From the IMG/VR virus record IMGVR_UViG_3300042866_001735, positions 1 to 34,547 of that record: DNA of 34,547 nucleotides. The stretch is one strand, 5' to 3'. The first letter of the stretch is position 1. Each line of letters starts with the position of its first letter. Source of the DNA: a virus. Lineage: Duplodnaviria > Caudoviricetes. Position numbers and translations under genes: made by a program. The notes below the pieces were generated by a model, which saw only the letters and a program-made list of their open reading frames with translations, made no database searches and was not told where the DNA came from. This document shows positions 3,154-33,332 of this stretch, one piece after another.

Positions 3154-3490
3154 GGCTCTCTCAGTCAACAAAGCCTGGCAGGGAAAGCGTTTTAAGACAA
3201 AGGAATATGTAACCTATGAAAAAGAGGTAATGGACAAATTGGAGTTCGTAGATATGAGCCAAACCAAAATGCCCATTGAACTCTCCCTGATTGTAGGATT
3301 TAGCAATATGGCTTCAGACGTAGATAACGTGGTTAAACCATTCCTGGACATCCTCCAGAAGAAGTATAAGTTTAACGATAAATACGTCTTTAGATTGATT
3401 GTTGAAAAGATGTTAGTTGAAAAAGGGGCCGAATTTATTGAGTTCTACATCAAAAAGTGCGTTCCTCGTCATTATATACTTGACAAATAA
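3098..3490 (+). CDS. rusA: RusA-like Holliday junction resolvase
   Basis: LSVNKAWQG N-terminal motif, and SDVDNVVKPFLDIL...FNDKYV matching the RusA catalytic D-x-D-N-x-x-K-x-x-x-D...D pattern. Confidence 0.8.
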   Translation: MRTSSKENILLLSDRVEIKALSVNKAWQGKRFKTKEYVTYEKEVMDKLEFVDMSQTKMPIELSLIVGFSNMASDVDNVVKPFLDILQKKYKFNDKYVFRLIVEKMLVEKGAEFIEFYIKKCVPRHYILDK

Positions 3491-8683: not shown

Positions 8684-9451
8684 ATGTCACAAAATTTTGA
8701 TTATTACTGTTTCCCTTCAGTTGCTGCTGGTGCTACTGCTACCACTGACGCTGTAAACAAAGGTGGTTATCTGAACTTCAGCGGAGCTAATACACTTGCT
8801 ATTACTCCTGCTGCTCTGAGAAACTTCCCCATCTACCTGTTAGGCGTTAAGAATGGTACTTACAAAGCTTATGCTGCTGAAGTATTGCGTGTTGTTGTTG
8901 TTACTCCTACTGCTGTAAATAATACCGATTATCGTGTAGTATTGAGCGCAGAAAAAGGACAAACCTTTGACAACAACTTGCCTCAAGAAATTCAGGCTGT
9001 ATTCCAGTACACTTCTACTGCTAGTGCTACTCGTTTGGCCATTGTTAACGCTTTCGTAGCTGCTATCAATGCTCATCCTTTCTGGACCACTCGTGTAGTT
9101 GCTACTCAAACTGGCGGTGCAGGTACTGAAACCTTGACTGTTACTGCTAAAGCTGGCTTCCCAATCTTTGCTTTGGGTGTTGGTGCTAACCTGAGTGTTT
9201 CTGTAAGTACCGCTGGTTCACCCCAGATCGGTGCTACCGGTGCTCAGCTGTTGGCTACTGGCTACTTCAACAGCACTGTTGGTTTGCCTGTTGCTGGTAC
9301 TAACTACAGCGCACTGATTTTCGAAAGCTACAGCGGAACTGAAGCTGTTGCAAGCGGAACCGGTGACACTGAGAAGAGCATCATCTACATCGTAGACGGT
9401 GGTAACAACGCTAACTTGATTACTGCTTTATCAAGCTTATTGGTTAAGTAA
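8684..9451 (+). CDS. Abundant virion structural protein (auxiliary capsid/decoration-like)
   Basis: 255 aa, A/T/G/V-rich, with the same strong codon bias as the capsid gene. Co-transcribed up to the terminator at 9469. Confidence 0.65.
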   Translation: MSQNFDYYCFPSVAAGATATTDAVNKGGYLNFSGANTLAITPAALRNFPIYLLGVKNGTYKAYAAEVLRVVVVTPTAVNNTDYRVVLSAEKGQTFDNNLPQEIQAVFQYTSTASATRLAIVNAFVAAINAHPFWTTRVVATQTGGAGTETLTVTAKAGFPIFALGVGANLSVSVSTAGSPQIGATGAQLLATGYFNSTVGLPVAGTNYSALIFESYSGTEAVASGTGDTEKSIIYIVDGGNNANLITALSSLLVK

Positions 9452-9468
9452 TTAGCCTTTTCTTAAAG

Positions 9469-9499
9469 AAGGGGGAGAATAAAATCTCCCTCTTTTTTT
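9469..9499 (+). terminator. Rho-independent terminator
   Basis: AAGGGGGAGA-ataaaa-TCTCCCTCTT stem followed by a T-run. Confidence 0.85.
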
Positions 9500-9540
9500 G
9501 TTTTTCCGATTAAAATAATTTATATTTGTAAAAAGATATT

Positions 9541-10407
9541 ATGAGAATAAAAGCACAGATTATCCCTCAGCGTACCCGTGGTAGTGTTACCATCGTAGGT
9601 TCGTACCGTGACAAAAAGACAGATAAGGAAAAGTATCTGTTGGCGAGCGGTAAAAAAGTTGTCCTTTCTTTGGACGAAAAAGAACGTGTTTATCAACACA
9701 CATTTGAATCCGGTTATCCTGTAACCTTTACTTTGGATGATGCTGATTTTCAGGACTTGAGCGTAATCGAGTTTTGGAAGAATCATCCTTTGGTAAAAAC
9801 AGAAGGCTACGAGAATCCAAACTTTGTTTCGGAGCAGTTTGTTTTTGAAATCAAAGAAGAAAGAATTCGTGTTGAATACGATGCTCTTGTAAGCAAGTTG
9901 GTTTGCGTTGAGCAAGTTAGTAAAATGACCGATAGAGAAAGAAGAGACTTGACTTTTGCTTTGGGCTCAGATCCTCGCAATATGTCAGACAAAGAAGTAT
10001 ATCTGCATCTGATTGGTCTTACTCTTTCCGGTATTGCTATTGCCAAAAGAGATTTGGTAAGCAATTATCTCTCAGTTCGTTCAAATGAAAGAGTTGCTAC
10101 CATCTACGCAAACAAAGCTATCTCTTACGGCATCGTTAAGAAAGAAGGTTCTGTTTACAAGATCGGAGGCCGAAACGCAGGCATCAGTATTGACGCAGTT
10201 ATCTCTTTGATTTTGAGCGACAACGATATGTTCGAAAATTACATCAAACCCGAAGTGGATAAACATGATGCAATCGAGCATAAGAATGTTGAAACTGTAG
10301 ATGAACTGAATCTGCCTCAAGAAATCGTTGATCTTCTTCCTGTGACTACTTCTATCGATAAGAAAGAAGCTAGGAAAACCGGAAAGAGAAAAGAGAACGA
10401 AGAATAA
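9541..10407 (+). CDS. Conserved crAss-like virion/cargo protein
   Basis: 288 aa. C-terminal KAISYGIVKKEGSVYKIGG motif and position after the capsid genes resemble the conserved crAss-like post-capsid gene. Own promoter box TATATTTG at 9521-9528. Confidence 0.55.
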   Translation: MRIKAQIIPQRTRGSVTIVGSYRDKKTDKEKYLLASGKKVVLSLDEKERVYQHTFESGYPVTFTLDDADFQDLSVIEFWKNHPLVKTEGYENPNFVSEQFVFEIKEERIRVEYDALVSKLVCVEQVSKMTDRERRDLTFALGSDPRNMSDKEVYLHLIGLTLSGIAIAKRDLVSNYLSVRSNERVATIYANKAISYGIVKKEGSVYKIGGRNAGISIDAVISLILSDNDMFENYIKPEVDKHDAIEHKNVETVDELNLPQEIVDLLPVTTSIDKKEARKTGKRKENEE

Positions 10408-10459: not shown

Positions 10460-10489
10460 ATTTAGCATATTTTTTGTATCTTTGAATAA

Positions 10490-11314
10490 ATGACTGGTGC
10501 ACAATTTTGGTCATATCTTCAGCAGAAAATTGACAAGGCTTATTCGGCATATCTAGATAATGCCAAAGCCAATTCTCTAATTAAGGAGGCGATGTCACGT
10601 ATTGTTGATAGGTACTGGCATAATATTTCTTTTGAGATTGAGGCTGACGAGATGATTGGTTTTCAGTTGAAAGACAAAACCTTCACTCCTGTTGCTGGTG
10701 TTTATATATTGAACGCCAACGCTACAACGCCTACTCCACCTGTAAATGAAATTCCTTTCTATATGCACATGATGCGTGTGCTTGGAAAGTTCGAACAGAA
10801 TTTGACTGTGACTGCTAGCGGAAATACTCTGACGAGTGTAAATCATCCATTGAGAAAGGGCTCTACCATTCGTTTAGGAGTTACCAACTATACTGTAAGT
10901 AAGGTGGATGGAGATACTTTCCAGGCAAAAGATTCAGGTGGAAACTTTGCAACTACACCTGGAACTTATGTATATTTTTACGATAGAGAAATAAGGCAGA
11001 TGTCTTCTACTCGCAAGGGTGGTTCTTTTCACAAGGCGAGCATTATTACTCCTCGTTATGAATTTATAAATAACGGAACTAGTCAGAACAGAATGATGAA
11101 AGTAACTCCGGCAGCTACTTCTATTACTGTGGATTACATTCGTACTGCTCCGTATACTATAGATGTTGCAAACAGCGTAATACTGCTGACGGATTATTAT
11201 TCTGAAAAGTTTTTGTATCGTCTGTTGGATGAATGTGCTCTTGCTTTCGCTGCTTCAAGTCACGACTATCCGGCAAAACAATCAGCAGCTCAAGATATAA
11301 TTAATAACCCATGA
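10490..11314 (+). CDS. Head-tail adaptor / ring protein
   Basis: 274 aa with helical N- and C-termini flanking a beta core (ITVDYIRTAP), as in podoviral adaptor proteins. Synteny. Confidence 0.6.
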   Translation: MTGAQFWSYLQQKIDKAYSAYLDNAKANSLIKEAMSRIVDRYWHNISFEIEADEMIGFQLKDKTFTPVAGVYILNANATTPTPPVNEIPFYMHMMRVLGKFEQNLTVTASGNTLTSVNHPLRKGSTIRLGVTNYTVSKVDGDTFQAKDSGGNFATTPGTYVYFYDREIRQMSSTRKGGSFHKASIITPRYEFINNGTSQNRMMKVTPAATSITVDYIRTAPYTIDVANSVILLTDYYSEKFLYRLLDECALAFAASSHDYPAKQSAAQDIINNP

Positions 11315-11940: not shown

Positions 11941-12437
11941 TGAAAATAGAAGACATTATAGCAGCAGCAGCCGAAGAATTAAATTGTTCCTATGAGAATA
12001 ATGCTTTGTGGTTTGAGGTTCTTGTAAACCAAGCCATTCGGTCTCATAAAACAATGAATAAGTATATTCAGAAGAGTAAGAATCTTACTATAACTGATTC
12101 AAAAGCTACGCTGCCTTCTGATTGGTTCAAAGTAATTCGTGTTACATTGTGCAATACAAATGAGCACTATTGCCCAGATATAGATTACACCATCCAGGAG
12201 GACACTATTATTTTTGATGCTGCCATAGGTATGGCTGATGGCACAAGAATTGTTTTCCATTACTACGGCCTAAACACTGACAAAGACGATAACATAATCA
12301 TTCCTGATGATTGGGAGCGTATGCTCGTTGCTTACATCGGTTGGAAATATACTCGTAGGTATATCAACGATTTTGGTATGGGAGTAATGCAGAACTATCA
12401 AAGGGAATACCAAACACAAAAACTCGCTAACGTATAA
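11940..12437 (+). CDS. Neck ring / tail tubular protein
   Basis: 165 aa. ATLPSDW and VFHYYG...IIIPDDWERMLVAYI fit the adaptor/ring fold pattern. Confidence 0.6.
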   Translation: MKIEDIIAAAAEELNCSYENNALWFEVLVNQAIRSHKTMNKYIQKSKNLTITDSKATLPSDWFKVIRVTLCNTNEHYCPDIDYTIQEDTIIFDAAIGMADGTRIVFHYYGLNTDKDDNIIIPDDWERMLVAYIGWKYTRRYINDFGMGVMQNYQREYQTQKLANV

Positions 12438-15400
12438 TGCAGGTAAGAGTAACACCTTCAGGAAATTTAGATAAAGATACCGAATTGGTTTATGTGAACC
12501 AAGGTAACTATGTTGATGCCAATGATATTCGCCATCGTCACACTGGTGATCAGAACTTTGGCGGTATTATGTCTGTATTGGGCAATAAGAATGTAATAGT
12601 AGCAACCGATGACGCTGGAGCTACGGTTGATTATATTCCAGGCTACACGACAAAGACAAAGATTTACCGGGTTTATTTTGATTTAAATCCGTTAATAAGT
12701 CTTTCGACAGCGGCAAATGTTGGTGTTATCACTTTAGTTCGTTCTGATGGTACTCCGTTTTCTTCCGGCAACATTTCTATAAGTTCAACCAATCCTGTAA
12801 CATATTCAAATACTCTTAGAACTCAAATTGAATTATTAAGAGTTGCTGCTGGTTATGGTTTACCATTTACGTTTGGACCTTTGGTTCCTAGTGGAACAAA
12901 TATATATTATTTTACTGTAACACTTAATCCTGCTACAGATACAGATTATGTTTTCGAAATTGAAAATATTACTTCTTCTTTGTGTAGTTTTAAAGTAGAA
13001 CAAGAATATATTGGTACAGCGGGCACATTTACAGTTGTGGGTTCTCAGCAATTAGATGATTATTTATTTTTGTGGTTAGCTGGTTCTAACGTGCTTGGTA
13101 ATTTTTCTGAAGTAAGTGAGATAGGGGTTTTATCAAAAGGGACTGGTGTAAATCAGGGAAAATACTTATACAAAAGATTATTACGTGCTAAACAATTAGG
13201 TCTTTCGCAGAGCAAGAGAGTTGAGGCCGAAATAGAAAAGATTGGGACTCAGATAAATTTCTATTGGACCGATGGTAATAATAAACCAAGGGCAATATAT
13301 CTAAAGACTTCGAATCTGCAAGTTCTTGATGGTTTCTTATTTACTACCGGTGGTAGATATGAATACGAAACAATTGATCAGGAAACATCTTTCTTTTATC
13401 GTAATCCTTCTGCATATATCGATGAAATTAGAGTTGTTGAGGGAGAAGGATTTTTGTCGGCAGGAAACAAAAGATACACAGGTCGTTTTCTGACAGAGGA
13501 TTTAATTGGTACAGATTTTTTATATCCAACAGGATTAATTAATTTATATAGTGCTGTACAGACAAAACCTTCTTTAATTGCTGGAGATGCTGTCAACGTA
13601 ATCACAGGTAAATCTGTGAGAATGAAAGTAAGAAATTTTACTCCTGGTGTATATAAATTTTTCGAATTGGTTGCTATAGAATACGAAGGAGAAGTATTTT
13701 CATCCAAAATAGTACAGCGTTTCAAAATAGAAAATCAACAAACAGAATTAGACTTGGTACATAATAACCAAGGCCAAGAAAATATACCCCTGTCAATTAA
13801 TGAATTAGTCGCTATTACTTCTAAATATCTTACAGTAAAAACTTTGAAGATATTTGATAATAGAATGACAATGAGTAATTTGACCGAACAAATTGATTAC
13901 GATTTGACCGCTTGGAGTTCTCAAATAACTCATTCCGTTACACAAAAATATATAACTAGTGTAGGTAGAAGCGGTTCGTCTTTTTCTCATTCAACTCCTA
14001 ATTATAGATTTGGAGAATATCAAGATCCTCAAAACGTATTGAACAATACAGGATACATGATAAATGATACCTATCGTTTTGGTATTCAGGTTCAATGGAA
14101 AAGCACTGGTAAGTGGAGTGCGCCTTATTGGGTAGATGATGTACGTATTGATGATTTAGATTATAATATTGATTTAGGTAGTTCGAGGAGAGATATACGC
14201 AATAGAGTTATAGGCGGTGTAGATGTAGTAAATAATAGGATTCTTATCACTAATCATGGCTATGAAGATGGCGATGAAATACGCTTTACCATAACATCAG
14301 GTTTGGCTGGTTTGGTAATGAATGCAACTTATTTTGTTATTAATTCTACTCCTAATAATTTTCAAGTCACAAGTGATTATTATGGGTCTCAGATTATACA
14401 ACCTCTTATAAGCGCAGGAACAGGAAGTGTGCGCTTGGCAAAAATAGATCCTAATTTAACTAATACAACTGCTACATTAACAAAAGTATATTACCCCAAA
14501 TTTCACAATATAGATTTAGATTATCTTGTTGATACAGATGGTAGCGGATTAGGAGACACGCCCATTCGTGATTTGATTGTAGGCTATCGTTTTGTTCGTG
14601 CAGAAAGAATACCGGAAGTATTAGCAACGGGTTTCTTTTTCACATCGAGTTTGGTGGGTGGAACTAGTTGGACTTCAAGAATTACAAATCTATGGCAACA
14701 AAAAAGTATTAGAACACCAGTGCCCGGTGGTCTTGGTGGATCTCAAAGATTGTTTTTCTATTCGCCTGATTTGTATTTCGGAAAGAATTATGAATTTAGC
14801 ACTGCTGATAGACTCAAAATACTTTTACCATATGATGTAAACTATGAAACACAAATTCGTGGTGTTGCACAAGCTTTTGGATTTTCTTCTTATAGCGATA
14901 CAATCGGATATTTTGGTGATCAGATTAATTTTCCGTACAACTATGTTGATTATTCTTTAATATCGCATATTTCTTTGGATACAGGAAATCAAGGAAATAT
15001 GGACGGAGAAAATTACACGTTAGCTGATGGTGTAGGTTTGCAATATAGTTGTGAAGTTTTCAAATTGACCACGCCTGTAGCAGCACTTGGTGCTCCATAC
15101 AATGCAAATGAATTTGGTAATCATTACGGACAAATATTCAGAAATTTAGGTGCTAATAAAAAATATCCAATAAATAAAGAACAAACGGTTTATCAATCTA
15201 CTGGTCATATTGCTTATTTGTCTGTTGGACAAAATGGAGTAGTAGATAATGTAAGGATTTTTGGTGGAGACGTGTTCAGCCAAAAATCGCATATGCTTAT
15301 GAGATTGCAGCCGTGGAATAATCCTTTACAAGGTTATGGTGTCGGTTTTTCTTTTTATTCTCAAAATGCTTTAAACACGCAGATGTTTAATGTTATAGAG

Positions 15401-16914: not shown

Positions 16915-17772
16915 ATGGATCCATTTACTATAGCAGCGATGGCAGCACAAGGCGGTTCTGCTTTGTATCGCCTAATTAAAGCACAACAAGGTTTAGATGC
17001 AGTTAAGAAACAAAGGATGCCTAGTTTAATGGAAGCCATGGCTCCTTTGCAGGAAAACCGCAGACTTTATGAACAACAATTCAGACAAGGGTTGACTCCT
17101 GCAACAAGAAATTTAGCACAGCAGCAATTTGCTGCTACTCAGTTAGGTCAACAAAGAGCTGCTGCTGATTTATCAGGAGGACAGATGTCTTCTGCTTTAT
17201 CTCGTTTAGGTGCGCTGAATACTGGTCAATTTGCACTTGGTCTTGGGGCTCAGAATGAAGCAGCTCAAAGAGCAGGTATGGTAGGAATGATAGGAGCAAA
17301 TCAAGGTATATCAGCACTACAAAGAGCAGATGCAGCACAGCGTTTACAACAGCGTTTGGAATTGGAACGACAATTAGGTTTGGGTTTTCAACAGGCTGGT
17401 CAAGATATTGTTGGTGCTTTTGGAGGATTGGCCATGTCTCAGATGCAACAGAAAAATGCTGAAGCGAATCGTCAAATGTATAGAGATTTATATGGTAATA
17501 AAACTGCACCAACCACTGATGCAACAAAAACTTCTCCTATGACTCCTTCTACTTCTTTTGAAGGATTAACAGGTAGAACAGCTGGAATGTATCCAACAGG
17601 TAGTTCTGAGCTAAGCATTGGGGCTCCGACAATTTCTAGCAGAAGTTTTCCGTCTCTTGGTCCTGATCTCATGAGCGGAATAGGAACATATCCAGGAGAA
17701 GAATATAATTACGATTTAGGTTTACCTACTTTAAGAACAAGATACTCTACACCAAAAACTCGTTTTAGATAA
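16915..17772 (+). CDS. Putative internal virion / DNA ejection protein
   Basis: 285 aa, A/Q/G/M-rich, with a MDPFTIAAMAAQGGSAL hydrophobic N-terminus typical of podoviral ejection proteins. Lies after the nozzle gene. Confidence 0.6.
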   Translation: MDPFTIAAMAAQGGSALYRLIKAQQGLDAVKKQRMPSLMEAMAPLQENRRLYEQQFRQGLTPATRNLAQQQFAATQLGQQRAAADLSGGQMSSALSRLGALNTGQFALGLGAQNEAAQRAGMVGMIGANQGISALQRADAAQRLQQRLELERQLGLGFQQAGQDIVGAFGGLAMSQMQQKNAEANRQMYRDLYGNKTAPTTDATKTSPMTPSTSFEGLTGRTAGMYPTGSSELSIGAPTISSRSFPSLGPDLMSGIGTYPGEEYNYDLGLPTLRTRYSTPKTRFR

Positions 17773-17775
17773 TTT

Positions 17776-19266
17776 ATGGCAGAACAACCATCATTAGGTG
17801 GAGCGATTGCTCTACAAGGCAGAAACAGAATAGCTGAAGAGCTAGGTAAGATGCAATTCCAAATGGGCCAAAAAGAGGCCGATAGACTTGCTAAAAAAGG
17901 TTTAGAAGATGCCAAAAGAATTGCTGAGATAGAACAAAAATTTGCTATTCCCAAAGGTCAGTATCATCGCTTAGTTCTGCCCGAAATTCAAAAAACACAG
18001 GCTGTTTATTTGGATAAGGTAAAAGATTTGAAGGCGCAACGTCCAAACAATTGGCAAAACGAAATACAAAATTTGTCGAATCAATATGTTGGTGAAATGG
18101 AAAAGTTTGAAACATTGTCAAAAGATTTCAACGATTACGATACTAGAACTGCTAGCATAGATAAAGGCAATACTTACTTTTCTAAAGAATGGAATAAGTT
18201 TAATACTGCATACGAAAACGCACAGACTTTAGATGATTTCAAGACTAAATTAGGACAGAGTGGTTTTGATCCAACAAAGGCAAGTGATTTTATTGTTCGT
18301 CCTAATGGTTCAATATCTTACAGTCCATTTACTAATCAAAAACCTCTTGAAACTCTAGTAAGCCAAATAGAGAAATTTGATGGTGTTAAAGTTGGTTCAA
18401 AAACATCTAGAGATCAATTTGGTAATCTTGTAACTGAAGATATTAAATTAAGACCTTTAACATATGAGGAAGCCGACAAGATCAAAAATGATCCTGCGTT
18501 AGCTGGTTTATATTCAAATGTTGCTCAATTGCCGAGCATTGAAGCTACACTAGATTCAATCATAGAAACAAATCCTTATTTTGCTATTCAGTATGCTGAT
18601 CAAAGGAATTTGCCTTTGCGTAGAAATGCTGATGGTACATATGCTCAAGAAGATGTAGATGTAATCAAAAAGGATTTGTTGCAAAAAGTGCAGAACATGA
18701 GAGAGCCAAAAACAGGTAGAAGTGTTACGTTTGCTCCTCGTGGAACAAATGTTACTGTCAATGTTGGCGAAAGAGAAGAGGGAGAAATGGCCAGACCTGT
18801 TTATAACTATGGTAGAATTAAAAGTATAATGAGTGCTCCTAATTCTGCTTATAGATTAGGGGAATTGAATGTCTCATACGAAAAAGAAATGCCGAGTGTT
18901 CAAGTGGCACAAGGTGAAGTGTTTGATGACAATTTTAAATCCTTTACAGCAAGAACTCTTAATAAAGTTAAGCCTGATGGTGTATTAATATTGGCTGTTG
19001 ATAAAAACGGAAATCCAATATCATCTGTCGGAAGAACACAGGATGATAAAGCAAAAGTTGCTGGAGCTGATGTATTTATTCGTTTGAAGGCCGGAACCAA
19101 TGCTATTTATTATCAGAAATTAGATAATTATACAAATCTGACATCACAATATGGCACACCTAAAGGTAAAAAAGATGTGCTTGATCAGATGATAAAAGAG
19201 ATGATTCAGAAGGCTACGGCATACGATGCAAATGTCCAAAGCATTAAAGATCAAATCAAAGACTAA
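17776..19266 (+). CDS. Putative internal virion / ejection protein
   Basis: 496 aa with a helical N-terminal half. Middle gene of a small-medium-giant trio, as in T7 gp14-15-16 or P22 gp7-20-16. Confidence 0.55.
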   Translation: MAEQPSLGGAIALQGRNRIAEELGKMQFQMGQKEADRLAKKGLEDAKRIAEIEQKFAIPKGQYHRLVLPEIQKTQAVYLDKVKDLKAQRPNNWQNEIQNLSNQYVGEMEKFETLSKDFNDYDTRTASIDKGNTYFSKEWNKFNTAYENAQTLDDFKTKLGQSGFDPTKASDFIVRPNGSISYSPFTNQKPLETLVSQIEKFDGVKVGSKTSRDQFGNLVTEDIKLRPLTYEEADKIKNDPALAGLYSNVAQLPSIEATLDSIIETNPYFAIQYADQRNLPLRRNADGTYAQEDVDVIKKDLLQKVQNMREPKTGRSVTFAPRGTNVTVNVGEREEGEMARPVYNYGRIKSIMSAPNSAYRLGELNVSYEKEMPSVQVAQGEVFDDNFKSFTARTLNKVKPDGVLILAVDKNGNPISSVGRTQDDKAKVAGADVFIRLKAGTNAIYYQKLDNYTNLTSQYGTPKGKKDVLDQMIKEMIQKATAYDANVQSIKDQIKD

Positions 19267-19316
19267 AGTTCACCACAACTCTCTTTTTATTAAAAATTTT
19301 TTATTATCTTTGAATA

Positions 19317-22300
19317 ATGGCTATTCAGAACATAAACGAGCTTTATGATAAGCTCTCTGCAAACGAAAATTTTTCAGAGTTTAACTTCGGATCCGCAGAT
19401 GATTTTAAACTTTACTTAGAAGAATTACCAGAACAGAAAAAAGAAAAGTTCTATAACGCTTGGTTGGAGGATGAAGATATATCCAAAGATCAGTTTGAAA
19501 ATCTAGTAAAAAAAAAAGAAACAGGCCGAACCGGTATTTTGAGTTCAGCCTTAGGATCTATAGATTTCGCTTCTCCATCCGTTTCTAAATCTGAGCCCCA
19601 AGCAATTGCTCCCGAAGTACAAGCTCCGGAGGCAACTGCTATAGAAGACGTAACTGCTCCACTTGAGCCATTAGGATACGGCAAGTCTTTTGGTGGTACG
19701 CCATCTGGACCCAAGCCAGGTCCTACTTTCAAATGGGAAAATTATCTTAGTGATTTTCAGAAAAAGTATCCCAATGAATTAAAACCTCAGGATTATGCTA
19801 CAGGAGCTTTTTACGATAAGATTTATAAAAAAGAAGGCGAAAGATTAAAAACAGAATTTAATATTCAGTCTGCTAAACAGTTAGAACAATTCTCAAAAGG
19901 CGAACCTATTACAGCACCTACATTTGTAGAAGACAAACTGAAGACAGGTATAGAAAAAGCAAGAGAAGAATCTCTAAGGATTGGGGCTCAGAAAGAAAGA
20001 GGTTTTTTTGAACCTAAAGAAAAAGAGAAAAAGGCTATTCCTACAAAATTAGATGTTGAAGAACAGCGTGTATTCACAGATAATCCAATAGTTCAATACA
20101 ATATAGATCCTGTAGCAATAGCAGAAGGAAGAGAATTTGTAGATAGAAGAAAAGCAAAGGCATTAGAAGATTACAATAAGGAAGTTGCCGAATTAAAAGC
20201 AGATAAAAAATCTATATATAGCCAAATACCATTTTATGATTTCCAGGATGAAAATGGAAATACTATGGCACTAGATGAAATATCAATTGGTTCTTCTTTG
20301 TTCAACAATAAACCTATAACTCTTTTTGTCAAAGAAGGAAAGATGGCAGCAAATGTTGGTGTGCCTGGTTTTAGGAATGGAAGATTAGATGAACAAAGCT
20401 TCAAAAATCATTTGTTATCATTAGGTTTTGGAGAAGAAACAGCAGAGCAAGAGATAAGCAGATTAAAACAAGTTTACATCGAGGATTTGGGTAAACAAAG
20501 AATGGATTATCTCAAAAATAGTTTTTATTCCATGTCTGGTGATAATCCTGAGATGGCTAATGCTCGTTATTTAGAATATTATAACAATAAAGCAATTGAT
20601 TTGTTATCTGATGATGAGAAAGAGGGATATAATTTATCAAAACATATTGATGCTCTTTACGATAAATTAGATAAAGAAAGCAAGGCTCCAGGTGCATTGG
20701 GTGCTAAAAACGATAAAATAGAATCTATCAAGAGAACTATAAACGTACTTCAGAATCAACTTAATCAAATCAGGGAGAACCCGAACAACTTATATGACTG
20801 GAGAACAGGGGAATTTGTAAATAAGTCAATAAAGAATGCTCCTAGGTTTGCACAGATTCAACAAGAAAACAAAGAATTTCAAATAAAATATGGCAAAGAG
20901 CCAAAGAATGTTCTTGTTGAAAAGAGGGATAAGTTAATCCAACAAAGAGAAGAGATACTCAATCTCATGAAACAAGACGGTCTAGAAATTCCTGAGAAAG
21001 GAACATTTGCTAGTGCTGTTAAAGCCATGCAGATAAGTGCTGCTCGCACTGCCGGTACAGGACAAATACGTTTGCCTGATGGAAGCTATACAAATGCTGC
21101 TAGATACGAGAAGAAAATGGATGAGTATAACAAACAGTTATTTAATGTCGAAAGAGAATTGTACGGCATTAATAGGGCTGTTATGTTAAATGAAGATGTG
21201 GCGTTAAGAAACAAAGTTGAAACAGGTATAGTAGAATCTGGTGTAAAGTTTTTTGCTGAAGCTGGTAAGAGTATTGGTCGCACCATTACTCCGGGTTCTG
21301 TGAGTGAAGATGCCAAATCAGATTGGGAAATTAGAAATTCTCTTTTTCCAACTCTAGAAAAATCAGGTTTTATTATTGAACCAAAATTAAAATCTGCTGC
21401 TAGAAAAGATGTTTCTGAAATGATTAGCGATAGCGCAGGAACTCTTCTTGAAGCCATGGTTGGAATCGCTGCTGGTAATGCTCTATTACCTGCCGTTAAA
21501 ACTATGAAATGGGCAAACAAATTCAAAGATATATTAAGTAAAAAATACGGTAAGATAGGCGAAAGTCTTTTTGATAGTACTGCTGATATGATTAGAAGCG
21601 GTGTTATTTTCGAAACAGCAGGTCAAGGTTTTGCTACAGGTGTTGGTGAACAAGCTGGTCAGGTGGCATTTGATGCTTTGGATTTAGATAAGTTTTTTGG
21701 AAATAAAGGTAGATTCTTAGAATACTTTGCTCGTGTTCTTACCGGTGGTGGCGCAGAAACTGTGCAGGAATACGCTGGTCAATATTTACAAACACTTGCG
21801 GATCAAGGTATAGATATTGAGAAGAATTTCAAAACTGCTTTTGGTCGGGACTCAGAAAGTGCACTTGATCAGTTCTTACAAATAGCAATTACAAGTGCTT
21901 TGTTCTCTGGTGCTAGTAATGCTAAAATATTACTTGCTACTAGAACAAGATTAAATGATGTATTAACAAAACCGGGTGTTGCCTCACAATACGGTGTGAT
22001 ATTAGACGAAGATACTAGAAAAGAAGTAGAAGAAGTATTGAATGTAGTTGATGATAAGTTGAACGATAAATCAACTGTGCAAACCACCGAGAAGAAAACT
22101 AAAGAGATAAGTGAGGATTATATTCCAGAACCAGTTTCTACAGCTACCGTTGAACCTGCTGCGGAAATGGAAGCTCCTGAAGGAGTTACACCTGCTGCTG
22201 CCGAGGTTATTCCTGGCGAAGAGGGTGTTGGTCCTATAGAGGCTACGCCCGAAGCAGTTGGGCCTCAGACAGAAGCTGACATAGAGGCTAAAAAAGCTGA

Positions 22301-25300
22301 TATAGAACAGAGAAGACAAAAAGAATTAGAAGACACTGGAGTCGCAGATATTGATAAAGAAACTATAGAAGAAAAAACACTTCGTGAAATTACTGCTCTT
22401 TTTGAAAAATATAAAGATTCAAAAGATTCAGGAATAGAGTTTTATGTTGCAGAACAAAAAAGAACAGGAGCACTTGATGACAGAGCATATGCGACATTAG
22501 CCAATAAATATTTTGAAGAGCTTTCAGATGATGTAAGAAATTATTTAGAATTTAAAGCACCAGCAATTGATTTTGAAACACCAGAAGGTTATAGTCCTTA
22601 TTATAAAGGCTTTGGTTATAATCGAGACGAAGCTACTGGACATACTCCACAGGTTCATGGCGGCCACATAAGTTTGCTTAAAGAAAACATTTCTCAAGAC
22701 AATCTTGAAAAAGCAAATAAGCAAGATTTAGCAGAAGATATAAATGCTAAATATGATGCAGAATTAACTGCTTTGGAACAAAAACCTACCGAAGCAGTTG
22801 GGCCTCAGCCAAAAACAAATTTACAAGAAATAAGCACAGAAGTTGCACAAGGGGGTGTAACTGATGTATCTTTGCAAAAGATAGAAGATTATGGAAAAGA
22901 AATTGAATCGGGAAATGTTGACTTTGAACGATTTTCACCGGCAGAGCAACGAGGCCTCATTGAAGGAGGTCCAATCCATGTTGAAGCAACCATTATCACT
23001 GGAAAAAGTGATAGAGGAACAGACACTCAGGACGAAAGCAATGACAGGCAAGAGGAGATTGTAGAAGAATACGCCAAGAAAAAGGGTATTTGGACTGAAA
23101 ATGCTCACGCCAAATTAAATCAGCAGCACGGAAAACCTATTAATAGTGGCCAAGAATCTATAGTTTGGTTAGATAGAAAACGTGGTGTTGTAATCAAATC
23201 TTCTAACACTAGAAATTACACTACTTTAAGAGAAGCACTCGATAGCATTACATTAAGCAATGCTTATTTTCCAGCAGCAAAAATAACTGTTATTGGTTTT
23301 GGTACTGATGCAGAAGGCAATTTTGAAATTATTACTGAGCAACCCTATATTCAGGGCACAGAAGCTACAGAACAGGAAATAAAAGATTATTTCAACAATT
23401 TAGGTTTTACAGAAAACGAAAGATTATATGTTGGTAAAGATGCCTTTGGTAATGAAGAAGTTATTTTCAAAGATGCTGCACCTAAAAACGTAATCAAAAC
23501 TCCCGAAGGGAATATTATCCCCATCGATCTAATTGCCAAAATTAACAAGCCGGAGCTTAATGCAAATGGTACACGTATTGTGCCATCTACTGTTGCAGAA
23601 GAAGTAGCTCCTGCAGAAGTTACTCCTACGGAAGTTACTCCTACAGAGGCTGCTCCAGAAGCAGTTGGGCCTCAGGCACAAACCACTGCTGAAATATCTA
23701 AACCGAAAACATTTAAAGAATTTGAACAAAAAGCAAATTCAATTGCTCAAGAAAAAGAAAATATTGACTTTACAAAAGATAGTGTTGTTAAAGATGGTAA
23801 TCAAAATCCAATAGTAGTTTATAATAATACAAACGAAACAGAAACTCGTTTCGGTGAAGAAAAACCAACAGGATTATTTTTTACTACTAACCCTCAAACA
23901 TTTTCTGAATATGGTAAAAACAAATATGCAGCAGTATTAAACATCAAAAATCCTTATTATGCTTCGCAGCCTGAGGTAAGAAGAGAAGTTGACATAAAAA
24001 AATTAAAAGAAGCCGGATATGATGGAATTATAACTCATCCTAAATATAAGTATGATAGATATGTTCCTGTTAGTGAGGATGTAGAGGGAGCTCAAAAAGA
24101 ATATATTGAAAATCAAAGAAAGTACGATAATGTAAAAGGTAAAGACAACAGAAACGAACTAAATATGTCTGAGGCATATGAAGTTGTTGCTTTTTATCCA
24201 GAGCAAATAAAAGTTGTAGAATCAGCAGAAAATAAATCTCTTTCAGAAACTGCACCCGAAGCAACTACACCTCCCACAGAAACTACTCCTACTGAAGGTA
24301 CAGCCGAAGGTTATGGGTCTCAGAACACAATCGTAACAAAAGAAGATTATGACCAGGCAATAAAGAATCTTCGTAATCCTAATATACCATCCGGATTTGA
24401 TTTCTCTAAATTAGGAGATTTGATAAAAGCCGGTATGTATCACATAGAAGCTGGATCTCGTTCTTTTGCGAACTTCAGCAAAAAGATGATCGAGCAGTTT
24501 GGTCAAGCTGTTAAAAAATACTTACCTGTTGTTTTCAGAAGAAGTAATACTCAGTTACAGCAACAAGCTGCTGCCCCTGGTCGCACCAAAGCTCCTAAAA
24601 AAGCTCCTCGTCCTACTTTTGACGAAGTAAGAAAGAACATAAGAAAAGATCGTGATGATTTTGTAAAAGCAAATAAAACACAGAGTCCTAGTATTATTGG
24701 TCAATATTTGCTATCAAAAGGATATACATTAGGGCAGATAAAAACACATCTTCCTGAATATAATTCTTACTGGCAGAAAAAGGCTCGTGAACTTTTCATG
24801 GACTATGTAAAGGTACACCAAAATAAAATTGAACAGCGTAGAAAAGAAATTGCTGATTTCATGGATAAAAATCCTACGTTGGAATATGAAGACATCTACG
24901 AACAGTTAAAAGATAAATACAGCGATTTCGAATTGTTCAAAGCGTTTTATGAAGACGGAGCAAGCCCTAGTTTATTGGATGAAACGTTTGGTACAGAATA
25001 TAGACAAACCATTCAGAATTTAATTGACTCCAAAGGTTACAACCCTGATTTTCTCCGGGACATGGATGAAGATATTCGTACTCGCAAAGTAGAAAAGAAT
25101 TTGGGTGAGGCTAAATCTATATATGCAGATTTGCAAGACTTTGCCTCAGCAGAAGAATTGTTAGACGCAGCAGCAGAAGTATTAGGTATTTCTGGTGTTG
25201 AAGAGGCAATGAAAACCGCAACTGATAAAGTAAGAGCGGAGAACAAAAAGAAAGCTGATATATTAAAAGCGTATGGCAAAGCAATGAAGGGAGGTTTCAA

Positions 25301-28300
25301 ATCTGAAGATTCCGAACTCATTAAAAATATATCCGATATACTTTCTTTCTCCGGTAGAATGCTGAGAATGGGTCGTGGTCTATTCATGACAGAAAAAGGT
25401 TTGGCTGATTTGATTATCAGGAACTTGAGTAATATCACCTACAAAAAAGATAGCAACTTCGCAAAAACCAAAAAAGCATTTAGAGTTCCTGAAAAGACAC
25501 AGCAGAAAATTAGAGAGCTAGTTAAAAAGTATTTTGAAACAAAAGCAAAATTAGATGAAGCGATAGCACAGGTTGAAGATGGAGCAAATGCCTTTACAGA
25601 TGAAGCGTTTGATGAATTTAACAAAGCTAGAGCAGAACATCAAAAAGCGTCTACCGAATTAAAAGGATTGGTGAACAGATTATATGGAAGTAGAGCACCT
25701 CTGATTTCTCGGTGGTTTACATCTATGACATCCATGGCACTTCTTTCTTTCAGAACCATTTTTGTGGGTTTGATTGGTAATATGGAAATGATGTTGGCAT
25801 CTATGCCAAGAAAAACATGGGTTGGAAAGTTATTAGGTTGGACACGAATTTTAGCTAATTTTATAGTTGGACTTCCGATTTTAGCAAAAAAAGGAACACC
25901 TTTGGCATATGAAGCCACCAAAAGAGGAACAGGGGTTGGTATTGACCCTTCTATATATCGTAAACTTGCTTTCCAACAAGGAATACAACAAATTAAAGAT
26001 ATACTTCGTAAGGGATTAACAGAACAAACTTCTTCAGAAAGAGACTTTCTCCAGGGTTATGCAGAAATAGATGGTGTAAAAGATTTTCAGTTAGGATTCA
26101 AAATGATCTCTAAGATGATTAAGAATATTGCTGGAAAAGAGAAAATGACCGATGAAGAATTTGGTGCTGCGTTTGATAAAATGCTTATTGCTCTTGAGGA
26201 AAAAGACGCAAGCGGAAATCCAAAATTAGCCGGAATGCATAGCAAAGGTTATTACGCTGCTGCTGCTTTGCTTAGAGGATTTTTTGGTTCAATACCCACT
26301 ATTACAGGAAGAGCGATTGCGCTATCGGGCGATAGGGTGTTTTATCAATATGGCTATTATGAATTTTTGGCTGCATATGCTAATTCGAAAGGAATAACGG
26401 ATCCTGCCGAAGTAAAGAGATTTATTGCACTTAACAGTGTGGGAGACTCTGAAGCAGCAAGGGCAGCAGAAAGAGCAGCTAATAAGAGAATCTTTGCACA
26501 GAATAATGCGATAGTTAGATTCTTCGGATCGACAAAGGCGAAGTTGGATCAACTAGAACAGAATATTTATGGTGCGAAAATTAAAAAGAAAGTACAAGGT
26601 AAAGGAATTCAAGCTGCTGTAACAGGACTTGGGGCATATCCTATAGTCGCAGCTAAAATTGCATTGAATGCTTTTTCTCCTTTTGTAACTATTCCTTCTA
26701 ACGTTGTATCAAAATATCTTAGAATTGGTGTGCCTGTTTTCCCATTAGTAATGGCGGTTCGGACTCAGATGCAATTGAACAGCAGAATGAATGAGTATCA
26801 GAAAAATTATAGTCTGAAGGACAATGCTGAAATGAGTGAGACCACAAAGAAAAAGATGGAAGCGGATCGAGTTGCATTATTTGAACAACAAAGACTAGCT
26901 GCTCAGTATTGGACAGAATTTTTTCAAGGTGCACAATTAGCTGGTCTTAGTTATCTTTTGGTATCGACTGGTTCGGTAGGTGCTCCATATGGTGATGATG
27001 ATGAATCCAAAAAGAGAGCAAGAGCTGCTGGTATAGCACAGCAAGATGCAGGAAAATTAAACTTGTCTCATCTTTTTGATGTAGTAACTGGAAAAGAGAC
27101 AAGAGGAAGAGTTGCTAAAAAAGGAGATATAACCATTGATTATCGAAACTTAGGTATGGCAGGATTTTCTATAAGCACCTGGGCATCTGCTGGCGCATAT
27201 CTCAAAACGGAGCAACTAAAAAATAAAAAATTAATGGGTGCTGACGAAGATGTTATAGGTATGGTAAATGCCCATCTTATTACAGAGAGTTTAAAAAATG
27301 GTGTAACCCAATTAGGTTTTATTCAGAATATTTCTAATTTTATTAGCGGAATAAAATCAGAGAAAGGCACAGAAGCTCTCACTAGTAGTTTGTTAACAAC
27401 CGTTTTAACTGTTCCGACTTTAAGCTATGGCGTATTTAGTCCTTTCGAAAGAATAGAAGGTATAGGCTCAGATCCTCTTCGTGGTTATCATCCAGATTTG
27501 GAAAGTAGTGATGTGTTTATGGGTGAAGTGGGTGCAAGGGTATGGACCAAATTAACAGCTCGCTCTCCTTTGTTTGGATTTGGTTTGAGAAAAGAAGACG
27601 GTACTTTTGCTGCTCCTTTGAAAACCCTGGGCTTTACTCCTTCGCAATTTTATCGCCCTCAGATTGGGCCTCATGGTGAAAGATTGTATAAGAAGTCAAC
27701 ATTCTGGGATACTCGTAGCGGAAGTACGGTAGATAAATTCTTAGCTTTTGCTCAAGCATCTCTTGATCCACTTAATATGAGTGATTACGAAGGTTTTGTT
27801 TCTCAGGTTAAACCATTTGATATGAAAAAAGAATATAAAAAAGGTGATTTCATAGAATGGAATAATAATATATGGGTTGTTTTAAAAGATAAAATCAAAG
27901 GCAAAAGCCCCAAAGATGCAAAAATTAGGGTAGCCGGAGAGACATCGTTAGATGAAGATTATTTTTTAGTTGACGAAAAAACTAAGTTTTTTGATGCTAA
28001 TCAGTGGAGGAGAGACAAAGAAGGTACAAGAAAAACTCAGCTATTGTTTGACTTTGTTAACGAGTATGAGAAAGCTACCGGAGACAGAAAAGAATATGGT
28101 TTGTTTAGCAAATTGTACACCGATCCAGTTAAATTCAAAGATGAAGATGGTGAATTCGCTGTATACATACCCATGGAAGAGCAAAGAAAATTGAGCATTC
28201 TGCGTGGCGAAGCTATGGCAAGGAGTTGGGACTCAGACGAAGTACAAAATCGTCTTGACATCATTCAAAAAACTGCGGAAGACGAGAACATTTCCGATGC

Positions 28301-28580
28301 CGATTGGAAAAATTCAACAAAAGAATTGTTCTTGGATTACATGAAAGGTGCTATGGATGAAAATCAAAACCGCAGTGGTGGATTAATCGATAGAGTAAAT
28401 GAGGCAATAAAAGGAGTAGAAGAAAGCCCTGAATACGCTGCCATCGTTAGAGACGGTATAGTCAGGAGTGTTAAAGAAGGTTTGTTAACCGAAGCGGAGT
28501 TTGATCGCTTGGCTAAGCATACCGTAGCAGGTAATTTTATTGCGAGCATGGACAAAAGCAAGTTGAAATTTAGAAAATAA
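19317..28580 (+). CDS. Giant virion-associated polyvalent protein (kinase-like and ADP-ribosyltransferase-like modules)
   Basis: 3087 aa. Kinase-PolyVal-like segment at ~22920-23545 (SGQESIVW, VVIK, IITEQPYIQG, FKDAAPKNV, IPID). ART-PolyVal-like segment at ~23778-24215 (PIVVYNNT, GLFFT, LNIKNP, GYDGII, EVVAFYPEQIK). Hydrophobic G/A-rich helices elsewhere. Confidence 0.8.
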   Translation: MAIQNINELYDKLSANENFSEFNFGSADDFKLYLEELPEQKKEKFYNAWLEDEDISKDQFENLVKKKETGRTGILSSALGSIDFASPSVSKSEPQAIAPEVQAPEATAIEDVTAPLEPLGYGKSFGGTPSGPKPGPTFKWENYLSDFQKKYPNELKPQDYATGAFYDKIYKKEGERLKTEFNIQSAKQLEQFSKGEPITAPTFVEDKLKTGIEKAREESLRIGAQKERGFFEPKEKEKKAIPTKLDVEEQRVFTDNPIVQYNIDPVAIAEGREFVDRRKAKALEDYNKEVAELKADKKSIYSQIPFYDFQDENGNTMALDEISIGSSLFNNKPITLFVKEGKMAANVGVPGFRNGRLDEQSFKNHLLSLGFGEETAEQEISRLKQVYIEDLGKQRMDYLKNSFYSMSGDNPEMANARYLEYYNNKAIDLLSDDEKEGYNLSKHIDALYDKLDKESKAPGALGAKNDKIESIKRTINVLQNQLNQIRENPNNLYDWRTGEFVNKSIKNAPRFAQIQQENKEFQIKYGKEPKNVLVEKRDKLIQQREEILNLMKQDGLEIPEKGTFASAVKAMQISAARTAGTGQIRLPDGSYTNAARYEKKMDEYNKQLFNVERELYGINRAVMLNEDVALRNKVETGIVESGVKFFAEAGKSIGRTITPGSVSEDAKSDWEIRNSLFPTLEKSGFIIEPKLKSAARKDVSEMISDSAGTLLEAMVGIAAGNALLPAVKTMKWANKFKDILSKKYGKIGESLFDSTADMIRSGVIFETAGQGFATGVGEQAGQVAFDALDLDKFFGNKGRFLEYFARVLTGGGAETVQEYAGQYLQTLADQGIDIEKNFKTAFGRDSESALDQFLQIAITSALFSGASNAKILLATRTRLNDVLTKPGVASQYGVILDEDTRKEVEEVLNVVDDKLNDKSTVQTTEKKTKEISEDYIPEPVSTATVEPAAEMEAPEGVTPAAAEVIPGEEGVGPIEATPEAVGPQTEADIEAKKADIEQRRQKELEDTGVADIDKETIEEKTLREITALFEKYKDSKDSGIEFYVAEQKRTGALDDRAYATLANKYFEELSDDVRNYLEFKAPAIDFETPEGYSPYYKGFGYNRDEATGHTPQVHGGHISLLKENISQDNLEKANKQDLAEDINAKYDAELTALEQKPTEAVGPQPKTNLQEISTEVAQGGVTDVSLQKIEDYGKEIESGNVDFERFSPAEQRGLIEGGPIHVEATIITGKSDRGTDTQDESNDRQEEIVEEYAKKKGIWTENAHAKLNQQHGKPINSGQESIVWLDRKRGVVIKSSNTRNYTTLREALDSITLSNAYFPAAKITVIGFGTDAEGNFEIITEQPYIQGTEATEQEIKDYFNNLGFTENERLYVGKDAFGNEEVIFKDAAPKNVIKTPEGNIIPIDLIAKINKPELNANGTRIVPSTVAEEVAPAEVTPTEVTPTEAAPEAVGPQAQTTAEISKPKTFKEFEQKANSIAQEKENIDFTKDSVVKDGNQNPIVVYNNTNETETRFGEEKPTGLFFTTNPQTFSEYGKNKYAAVLNIKNPYYASQPEVRREVDIKKLKEAGYDGIITHPKYKYDRYVPVSEDVEGAQKEYIENQRKYDNVKGKDNRNELNMSEAYEVVAFYPEQIKVVESAENKSLSETAPEATTPPTETTPTEGTAEGYGSQNTIVTKEDYDQAIKNLRNPNIPSGFDFSKLGDLIKAGMYHIEAGSRSFANFSKKMIEQFGQAVKKYLPVVFRRSNTQLQQQAAAPGRTKAPKKAPRPTFDEVRKNIRKDRDDFVKANKTQSPSIIGQYLLSKGYTLGQIKTHLPEYNSYWQKKARELFMDYVKVHQNKIEQRRKEIADFMDKNPTLEYEDIYEQLKDKYSDFELFKAFYEDGASPSLLDETFGTEYRQTIQNLIDSKGYNPDFLRDMDEDIRTRKVEKNLGEAKSIYADLQDFASAEELLDAAAEVLGISGVEEAMKTATDKVRAENKKKADILKAYGKAMKGGFKSEDSELIKNISDILSFSGRMLRMGRGLFMTEKGLADLIIRNLSNITYKKDSNFAKTKKAFRVPEKTQQKIRELVKKYFETKAKLDEAIAQVEDGANAFTDEAFDEFNKARAEHQKASTELKGLVNRLYGSRAPLISRWFTSMTSMALLSFRTIFVGLIGNMEMMLASMPRKTWVGKLLGWTRILANFIVGLPILAKKGTPLAYEATKRGTGVGIDPSIYRKLAFQQGIQQIKDILRKGLTEQTSSERDFLQGYAEIDGVKDFQLGFKMISKMIKNIAGKEKMTDEEFGAAFDKMLIALEEKDASGNPKLAGMHSKGYYAAAALLRGFFGSIPTITGRAIALSGDRVFYQYGYYEFLAAYANSKGITDPAEVKRFIALNSVGDSEAARAAERAANKRIFAQNNAIVRFFGSTKAKLDQLEQNIYGAKIKKKVQGKGIQAAVTGLGAYPIVAAKIALNAFSPFVTIPSNVVSKYLRIGVPVFPLVMAVRTQMQLNSRMNEYQKNYSLKDNAEMSETTKKKMEADRVALFEQQRLAAQYWTEFFQGAQLAGLSYLLVSTGSVGAPYGDDDESKKRARAAGIAQQDAGKLNLSHLFDVVTGKETRGRVAKKGDITIDYRNLGMAGFSISTWASAGAYLKTEQLKNKKLMGADEDVIGMVNAHLITESLKNGVTQLGFIQNISNFISGIKSEKGTEALTSSLLTTVLTVPTLSYGVFSPFERIEGIGSDPLRGYHPDLESSDVFMGEVGARVWTKLTARSPLFGFGLRKEDGTFAAPLKTLGFTPSQFYRPQIGPHGERLYKKSTFWDTRSGSTVDKFLAFAQASLDPLNMSDYEGFVSQVKPFDMKKEYKKGDFIEWNNNIWVVLKDKIKGKSPKDAKIRVAGETSLDEDYFLVDEKTKFFDANQWRRDKEGTRKTQLLFDFVNEYEKATGDRKEYGLFSKLYTDPVKFKDEDGEFAVYIPMEEQRKLSILRGEAMARSWDSDEVQNRLDIIQKTAEDENISDADWKNSTKELFLDYMKGAMDENQNRSGGLIDRVNEAIKGVEESPEYAAIVRDGIVRSVKEGLLTEAEFDRLAKHTVAGNFIASMDKSKLKFRK
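22249..23675 (+). repeat. Three in-frame direct repeats GAAGCAGTTGGGCCTCAG (EAVGPQ)
   Basis: Copies at 22249-22268 and 22789-22808 (20 bp identical, including the leading CC) and 23658-23675 (18 bp). Confidence 0.95.
23601..23660 (+). repeat. Degenerate 15-bp tandem repeat (EVAPA EVTPT EVTPT EAAPE linker)
   Basis: gaagtagctcctgca gaagttactcctacg gaagttactcctaca gaggctgctccagaa. Confidence 0.85.
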
Positions 28581-32718: not shown

Positions 32719-32726
32719 ATTTGTAT

Positions 32727-33332
32727 ATGGCTTACGTTTACAGACATATAAGATTAGATAAGAATGAACCGTTTTATATTGGTATAGGTTCTGATAAAGC
32801 AAGGTGTTACACTAAACAAACAAGAAATAAACATTGGCATTCTATTACAAAGCATACAGAATATAGAGTTGATATTATTTTTGATGATTTATCTGTTGAA
32901 GAAGCGAAAGAAAAAGAAAAAGAACTTATTGCATTATATGGTAAAAAGTCAAATGGTGGTTTATTAGTTAATATAACTGATGGTGGAGATGGATGTTGGG
33001 GAGTTAAGGCAACAGAAGAACAACTTGAAGCAAGAAGAAAAAGAATGATTGAAAGCAATCATTTTAAAGGTAAACAGCATACTCCAGAAACAAAACAAAA
33101 AATGAGATTAGCTAAATTAGGAGTTAAAAGACCTAAAGAAGGTTATAATAAAAGAGCTGAAAAAATGAAAAAATATGTAGGTTTTAATCATTGGAATAGT
33201 AAACCTGTATTAGATTTTGAAACTGGAGTTTATTACGGTAGCGTTAAAGAGGCATCTATTTATGCTGATATGAATGTTACTACATTTATAAGAGCAATGA
33301 AAAAAGGAATTTTAAAATATAAAAGAGTATGA
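32727..33332 (+). mobile_element. Free-standing GIY-YIG homing endonuclease with NUMOD3 and a C-terminal HTH-like domain
   Basis: YVYRH...FYIGIG, conserved R, E (EKELI) and LVNITDGGDG; NUMOD3-like FKGKQHTPETKQKMRLAK; NUMOD1-like YGSVKEAS. Visibly more AT-rich than its flanks. The ATG at 32727 is preferred over the TTG at 32721. Confidence 0.88.

Follow-up and report, generated by a model that had tools for sequence, protein, structure and literature searches.

In-frame copies of a genome-wide DNA word as probable joints of a shuffled polyvalent protein array in a crAss-like phage record

A virus record of 34,547 nucleotides (IMG/VR IMGVR_UViG_3300042866_001735, Caudoviricetes), whose whole length we call the window, encodes a giant polyvalent protein of 3087 amino acids (aa) in which three identical in-frame repeats of 18 bp stand between modules. 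Are these repeats the joints at which modules are gained, lost and reordered, and what keeps them alike? An earlier reading of the letters of this DNA (the original prediction) proposed an in-frame cassette array whose junctions are recombination sites. Comparison of the homologs demonstrates that module content and order differ among relatives, in units that run from motif to motif. Our best explanation, to which we assign a probability of roughly 55%, is that the repeats serve as in-frame joints in a polyvalent array whose modules are shuffled, and that their core, the 10-letter word TGGGNCTCAG, is selected genome-wide and likely gives the identity for crossovers.

Results

Repeats and modules of the giant protein

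The giant gene and its parts are laid out as follows.

19317-28580, + strand: giant polyvalent protein gene (3087 aa, protein P0001), third gene after the crAss-like muzzle gene
19317-19600, + strand: leader, aa 1-95, inherited together with the C-terminal domain; part of the fixed frame
19591-19600, - strand: minus-strand motif copy, S-E-P-Q on the coding strand, at the leader end and the start of the variable N-domain
19601-22130, + strand: N-domain, swapped as one block between lineages
22251-22268, + strand: repeat 1, 18 bp, motif at 22259-22268
22269-22790, + strand: module 1, a helical core within a KADIE...INAKYDAEL hairpin
22791-22808, + strand: repeat 2, motif at 22799-22808
22809-23657, + strand: module 2, Kinase-PolyVal (Pfam stretch 23046-23546), in 13/13 close homologs
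23658-23675, + strand: repeat 3, motif at 23666-23675
23676-24313, + strand: module 3, ART-PolyVal with a Pro/Glu/Thr linker (Pfam stretch 23799-24221)
24314-24323, + strand: fourth copy of the motif (Y-G-S-Q), where the conserved C-domain begins
24324-28577, + strand: C-terminal frame domain of ~1400 aa, in all 29 homologs found with the C-terminal query

As originally described, the exact 18-mer GAAGCAGTTGGGCCTCAG occurs in three in-frame copies in this open reading frame (ORF), with spacings of 540 and 867 bp, and repeats 1 and 2 are identical over 20 bp. Given the gene's own codon usage, the chance that the same codon set encodes EAVGPQ in all three repeats is ~1e-4. The fourth copy of the core, which had also been recognised, reads GY-GSQ-N and lies 648 nt past the third. 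An assembly artefact was ruled out as the source of the repeats: contigs of X8, X9 and X10, sequencing runs not flagged as the source of the record, cross repeats 1 and 3 with 0-3 differences from the window (all run comparisons use assembled contigs). No contig piece crosses repeat 2 among the 32 matches listed, besides which there are 134 more; the two sides of this repeat are backed by proteins, P0011 having the same module-1 end and repeat and P0002 the same repeat and kinase start.

Module 2 matches Kinase-PolyVal (E 1e-29) and module 3 ART-PolyVal (E 3e-9), both above the Pfam cut-off, in agreement with the kinase-like and ART-like labels that they had been given from the letters. Because these two domains of unrelated biochemistry are Kinase-PolyVal and ART-PolyVal, P0001 counts, as far as its features could be tested, as a polyvalent protein as Iyer et al. 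use the term in the available text (PMC5512222). Its gene sits among late/virion genes, downstream of those for portal, capsid, ring and muzzle, and from gene position alone we infer that P0001 is an ejected cargo protein that is packaged in the virion and injected. Strand 1 of the ART-PolyVal fold, placed by eye at VVYNN (aa 1500-1504, window 23814-23828), has no His. The family triad is H-Y-D, and P0004 and P0008 likewise have a VVYNN-type strand 1 with Asn at the expected His, so the module is possibly inactive, or a variant.

Module 1, of unknown identity in the original prediction, has no Pfam or PHROG match and no fold match in the Atlas or the PDB, the fold query being a single-sequence model with a predicted local distance difference test (pLDDT) score of 71. 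Three large proteins unrelated to P0001 also contain its core. The module is a nested cassette, an exchangeable core inside a helical hairpin: P0003 carries the core without the hairpin, and a contig of run X11 carries the start of the hairpin and then other sequence.

The modules are more AT-rich than the linkers, as had been noted (GC 0.30-0.37 vs 0.50-0.56), but the contrast stems from amino-acid content, since GC at third codon positions (GC3) is only 0.15-0.33 in the linkers. The idea that AT-rich modules are foreign is thus true in part only: low GC3 is limited to module 1 and ART (0.12-0.13, vs 0.24-0.28 in backbone and kinase).

Module content and order differ among relatives

With the C-terminal part as query we found 29 homologs. 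A close set of 13, defined by a shared leader and kinase, comprises 12 database proteins including P0001 and the protein of L010; the other 18 homologs were handled apart. Between N-domain and C-domain, members of the close set carry one to six modules. Module 1 of the window recurs in P0011 at 99.4% identity (residues 2-180 of 180), but placed after the kinase, and P0004 and P0006 hold two common modules in opposite order (aligned over 2-186/186 and 1-220/220). At the DNA level, L009-L011 have the sequence upstream of repeat 1 fused straight to the kinase, exactly at the repeat, and lack module 1; a contig of run X8 shows an in-frame skip from 22244 to 22789 on a linker allele longer by 3 nt. 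These are the equivalent of a 540-bp repeat-to-repeat deletion that the original prediction had called for; the 867-bp deletion that it also foresaw, which amounts to kinase loss, occurs in 0/13 close homologs. Module 3 (ART) is absent from P0002 and from L009-L011.

We counted junctions by hand, leaving out X8/X10 joints in module 1 with sides of <30 letters. The peptide [VIY]G[APTS]Q stands at 41 of the 50 junctions of the 13 homologs, which are not independent because they represent only 33 distinct adjacencies (~25 with the peptide). All 43 array copies of the motif peptide lie in linkers, and the middle residue of the G-x-Q joints is only A, P, S or T, the four residues of the NCT codons. 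Between the giant genes of the window and L010, exact matches of at least 30 nt are confined to five places: where the gene starts, at the leader motif, at repeat 1, across the kinase and at motif 4. Breakpoints thus fall mostly, not always, on the repeat, and the original cassette array stands insofar as modules are gained, lost and reordered in frame. Labels of the relatives' modules beyond kinase, ART-PolyVal and the L003 methyltransferase (GNAT-like, for example) are tentative.

The frame that holds the array is broader than the original prediction saw. Leader identity follows C-domain identity across the 13 homologs, and P0001 and P0002 share 99% identity in the leader, 14% in the N-domain, 99% in the kinase and 97% in the C-domain. 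An identity island between the window and L010 (19507-19600) stops at the edge of the leader motif copy, and [ST]EPQ stands at the leader end in 11/12 close database proteins. These alignments establish the leader and C-domain as a fixed frame, with the N-domain and modules exchanged. Leader (19317-19600) and C-domain (24324-28577) are co-inherited across the 13 homologs despite lying 4.7 kb apart, which suggests that they act together.

When viral contigs were searched with three queries (C-domain start, alignment A1, kinase), no close-clade giant gene came up apart from a 71-aa fragment. The 30 loci returned by a pattern scan had a single match each, and none encoded a relative of the giant protein.

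A dispersed 10-letter word

The original prediction had linked the repeats to a dispersed motif, rightly so: the repeat core is the genome-wide DNA motif TGGGNCTCAG, with 16 copies on the + strand and 5 on the - strand, or 21 per 34.5 kb. Seventeen of the 21 lie outside the module array. Besides those in the giant gene listed above, they are as follows.

Starts 4543, 6790, 13243, 14383, 15661, 16067, 17244, 19982, 28227, 29711, 31314, 33749, + strand: other copies of TGGGNCTCAG
5' T at 749, 4434, 6602, 31092, - strand: other copies of TGGGNCTCAG

Within + ORFs, 16 and 4 copies were observed on the two strands, vs 0.26 and 0.03 expected from synonymous codon permutation, whose maxima over 2000 rounds were 2 and 1. 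The word is strict save at N; in relatives it is also read in more than one frame, lies on either strand and is found in intergenic DNA. It is retained at orthologous sites although third positions are only ~50% identical, and it is present in 7/7 virus records searched, two of which have a giant protein 37-39% identical to P0027. Past their first 252 nt, 12.8 kb of L009 and L010 show just 6 differences, 2 of them at junction-motif N and +1. To judge from this pattern of conservation, TGGGNCTCAG is demonstrably a DNA-level signal, family-wide. Literature searches, which largely left subscription papers outside, listed no paper that describes the word, or polyvalent proteins with joints defined at the DNA level.

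Strand counts are 16:5 in the window, 10:0 in G007, where two copies are antisense to early genes, and 7:1 in G008. Because coding alone favours the sense strand ~tenfold, the strand bias is weak evidence; under such a null the antisense copies are the more enriched. Intergenic copies stand at conserved sites 3' of early genes (L043:7666, 8730, 10449; L053:4188, 5421). In a Sphingomonadaceae metagenome-assembled genome (MAG; G001), the single genome hit, most of the 42 matches to the word are on phage contigs. This MAG contains several low-GC phage contigs of the window's family, recognisable by TGGGNCTCAG: C18, C22, C34, C40, C41, C44, C45, C47 and C72 (L043-L051), with a serine recombinase encoded on C40. 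Other words are over-represented in the window too, CCGGTGG with 10 copies vs 0.9 expected and AGCGGAA with 11 vs 1.7.

A second junction code in zincin-bearing relatives

The family separates two junction codes, the DNA word and a free-codon peptide that accompanies a zincin. The zincin motif HExxH is present in P0027, P0028 and most distant homologs and absent from P0001-P0008, P0010 and P0011, the HExxxH variant not having been searched for. Zincin-bearing proteins carry [NDS]K[AG]R or KSQ at their module joints, encoded by freely varying codons. Since the codons are free, we take this joint to be a peptide signal, consistent with the processing predicted in the available text of Iyer et al. 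(PMC5512222). The KAR/KSQ-type joints of related zincin giant proteins (L003:11502-18962, L049:1-3330, L056:10001-21871, L057:9758-21892) are candidate autoproteolysis sites.

The two codes can stand near each other. In L056, TGGGNCTCAG lies 9-22 codons upstream of 3/5 such joints, and in 17 distant proteins 19 of 58 motif-compatible peptides are at most 30 aa from one, with 2.2 expected, a figure that reflects about three homologous positions and is largely lacking in the P0014/P0016-P0018/P0022 group. Pro directly follows Q at 17/43 G-x-Q joints and at 0/81 KAR/KSQ joints, which makes it unlikely that both are one and the same kind of cut site.

Genomic setting

Pfam and PHROG scans identify a crAss-like structural block that encodes portal, capsid, ring and muzzle; two genes (285 and 496 aa) and then the giant ORF follow the muzzle gene. 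Relatives suggest that the window makes up about half of a full genome, G007, of 44 kb, being 64% complete. Of the 29 records that the portal matched, all at <60% identity (22-24% in the 15 listed), 28 are Flavobacterium phages. The crAss-like genes and these weak portal matches point to a probable Bacteroidota host. No cultured close relative was found, the capsid and kinase queries being without match. Runs that hold the giant gene are mostly lake and freshwater. Three genes are of interest for recombination.

306-596, - strand: small HNH/NinG-like endonuclease of 96 aa, coupled to YqaJ and adjoining it in relatives too; candidate reader of the motif
596-1579, - strand: YqaJ/RecE-like exonuclease (profile scans), candidate recombination machinery
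3098-3490, + strand: RusA-like Holliday junction resolvase (profile scans)

A homing endonuclease-like gene lies amid tail genes at 32721-33332 (PHROG 314, NUMOD3). The two genes before the giant gene (window 16915-19266 vs L002, L010 and L011) are also mosaic, with breakpoints away from TGGGNCTCAG; nearly all differences between L010 and L011 fall within ~850 nt of this region. Diverged relatives share short exact matches at gene boundaries (window 9365-9554, 10481-10521, 12411-12459, 19298-19345), and such matches resemble classical boundary/linker sequences.

Discussion

In the model that we favour, selection on DNA would keep TGGGNCTCAG across the genome, and its copies in flexible linkers would give fixed in-frame identities of 10-20 bp. 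Since x-G-[PATS]-Q is the predominant reading of the word, fusions there would stay in frame and survive. Crossovers at short identity around the word would add, delete or reorder modules, with co-infecting relatives or genome copies as partners; the substrate would be the 10-20 bp identity together with Pro/Glu/Thr/Ala linker repeats, and the probable enzymes the phage's own YqaJ exonuclease and its NinG-like and RusA nucleases. Since the word would be selected for a genome-wide job, the joints would not drift apart, and the array would thus stay swappable without a dedicated recombinase.

Several observations weigh against this model. Nine of the 50 junctions, themselves not independent, lack the motif peptide. 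Linker repeats without TGGGNCTCAG also slip, deleting or expanding sequence: in the near-identical pairs P0005/P0036 and P0002/P0034, the changes are a motif-removing 14-aa indel flanked by short linker repeats and a tandem expansion of 25 aa. A contig of run X11 matches the window through repeat 1 and departs ~60 nt into module 1. The ART indel relative to L010 removes motif 3, with its left edge directly 5' of that motif and its right edge ~60 nt short of motif 4. It may also be that linkers do no more than tolerate the word, which has a further copy in the linker-rich ORF 6331-7284. Junction DNA was read in the window, L009-L011 (one lineage) and L056/L057 only, with codons deduced from peptides for P0002-P0008, P0010, P0011, P0027 and P0028, and module exchange was read from compared sequences, not from a directly observed recombination event.

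A general hotspot at every copy of the word is unsupported, the copies in structural genes showing no recombination footprint. Outside the giant gene, copies that are shared have flanks without a surplus of synonymous identity (433/701 vs 425 expected and 479/783 vs 464, pair comparisons that are not independent), and most exact-match islands there coincide with gene starts or the capsid region and not with TGGGNCTCAG. The original link between motif and recombination is supported at exchange boundaries in the giant gene and not at those copies. Likewise, what had been called an undescribed diversification system stands as a shuffled array; a dedicated system, or a junction that an enzyme reads as a recombination site, does not follow, given the motif-free junctions, the linker slippage and nested module-1 swap away from the word, and the fact that no recombinase was found among the 26 window ORFs scanned, the window being part of a genome.

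Might TGGGNCTCAG instead be an active signal, a Chi-like stop for host AddAB or YqaJ or an HNH nick site, whose hotspot the array exploits? We regard this as possible but rather unlikely. Its density and 16:5 strand ratio are comparable to those of the Chi-rich phage LLS, as far as the available text on that phage goes (PMC12315714); the counts of G007 and G008 are more one-sided still and include two G007 copies that run antisense to early genes. Little variation is allowed in the motif, which is asymmetric and has almost no symmetric variants in the sequence; several crossovers lie a few bases from it where flanking identity is small, and the HNH/NinG-like gene is coupled to YqaJ. The flanks and exact-match islands outside the giant gene, described above, argue the other way, as do the ~tenfold sense-biased null with its more enriched antisense copies and an even strand split of early-region copies in relatives (~8:8, hand count). 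The side of the word on which homology is found, 5' or 3', changes from joint to joint, and the nick sites of phage tf are confined to one strand in the available description (PMC3517423). A tentative form of the idea is a private 10-bp recombination signal, written genome-wide and set at each border of the injected-effector modules, at which a phage nuclease (YqaJ or the coupled HNH enzyme) would focus crossovers. If true, it would be a recombinase-free in-frame combinatorial diversifier of polyvalent proteins in freshwater crAss-related phages, and TGGGNCTCAG would have become the joint in a clade that lost the zincin and the peptide cut sites.

It is improbable that the joint works mainly at the peptide level, as a site of the form G-small-Q for a protease or other processing, with DNA identity inherited through duplication. 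The free-codon joints of zincin-bearing relatives and the processing of polyvalent proteins by zincins, predicted in the available text of Iyer et al. (PMC5512222), speak for it, and a methyltransferase-like module begins directly after Q both in P0010 (GPQ) and in L003 (KSQ). Yet P0001-P0008, P0010 and P0011 lack HExxH, both signals occur side by side in L056 as distinct elements, and the G-x-Q frame is also found inside the portal and muzzle proteins. A Pro that follows the cut residue blocks most proteases, and Pro follows Q in 17/43 joints. Least probable, and in our view very doubtful, is a dedicated site-specific recombinase that moves cassettes in and out at TGGGNCTCAG in the manner of integrons or shufflons. 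The units are precise from motif to motif, the word is a near-palindrome, and a serine recombinase is encoded on the motif-bearing phage contig L046, co-binned with a relative; but L046 has no link to a giant-gene contig, and, as among the 26 window ORFs, no recombinase stood out when the ORF lists of G007 and G008 were inspected by eye. The exchanged edges spread from about -60 to +3 around the word, and most of the 17 other window copies lie within structural genes, where excision would be lethal.

Comparison with known systems

The shuffled array with genome-wide word thus remains our preferred reading, and it extends what is known of polyvalent proteins, whose variable domain content has been described (PMC5512222). 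Like those in the available account, P0001 is a large protein in a virion gene block that joins disparate enzymes in a variable architecture, and its relatives add methyltransferase, zincin and, under a tentative label, GNAT-like domains. Iyer et al. explain architecture variation by domain accretion, and the available text contains no junction sequence or shuffling mechanism (PMC5512222); it reports the zincin metallopeptidase (MPTase) domain as frequent (~36%) and not obligatory. In contrast to that account, joints are here mapped to a DNA word, in a close clade without HExxH. In the literature searched, sites of domain addition or reordering in polyvalent proteins had not been mapped before. 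Joints at defined bases, one module in two positions at 99% identity and a family-wide word make the shuffling mechanism directly testable, and they tie the role of dispersed phage-genome words to the diversification of multi-enzyme cargo proteins against host defences.

Dispersed repeats with another main job also serve as modular crossover points in the PeSL cassettes of the T4-type phages RB49 and phi1 (PMC2839356). In the available text, PeSLs are intergenic promoter/terminator elements that shuffle whole genes, with mini-circles; the joints described here, known from contigs alone, measure 10-20 bp, lie within one reading frame and shuffle domains. The word also resembles Chi in phages LLS and MD8, a short asymmetric word that occurs about once per 1.6-4 kb, strand-biased and within genes, with 23 sites at 20:3 by strand in LLS (PMC12315714, available text). 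It differs from Chi in that coding constraint accounts for most of its polarity, in that the phage brings an exonuclease and a resolvase of its own, and in that no recombination footprint was found at dispersed copies, raised exchange being seen in the giant gene and not in structural genes. Nick-site words of phage tf and LUZ24-like phages, as partly available to us in print, are likewise 9-10 bp long and dispersed through a podovirus genome, but those of tf are on one strand only (PMC3517423), whereas 5/21 copies of TGGGNCTCAG, a word known here from sequence alone, are on the other strand. In contrast to integron and shufflon systems, the sites are not limited to cassette borders, 17/21 lying outside the array.

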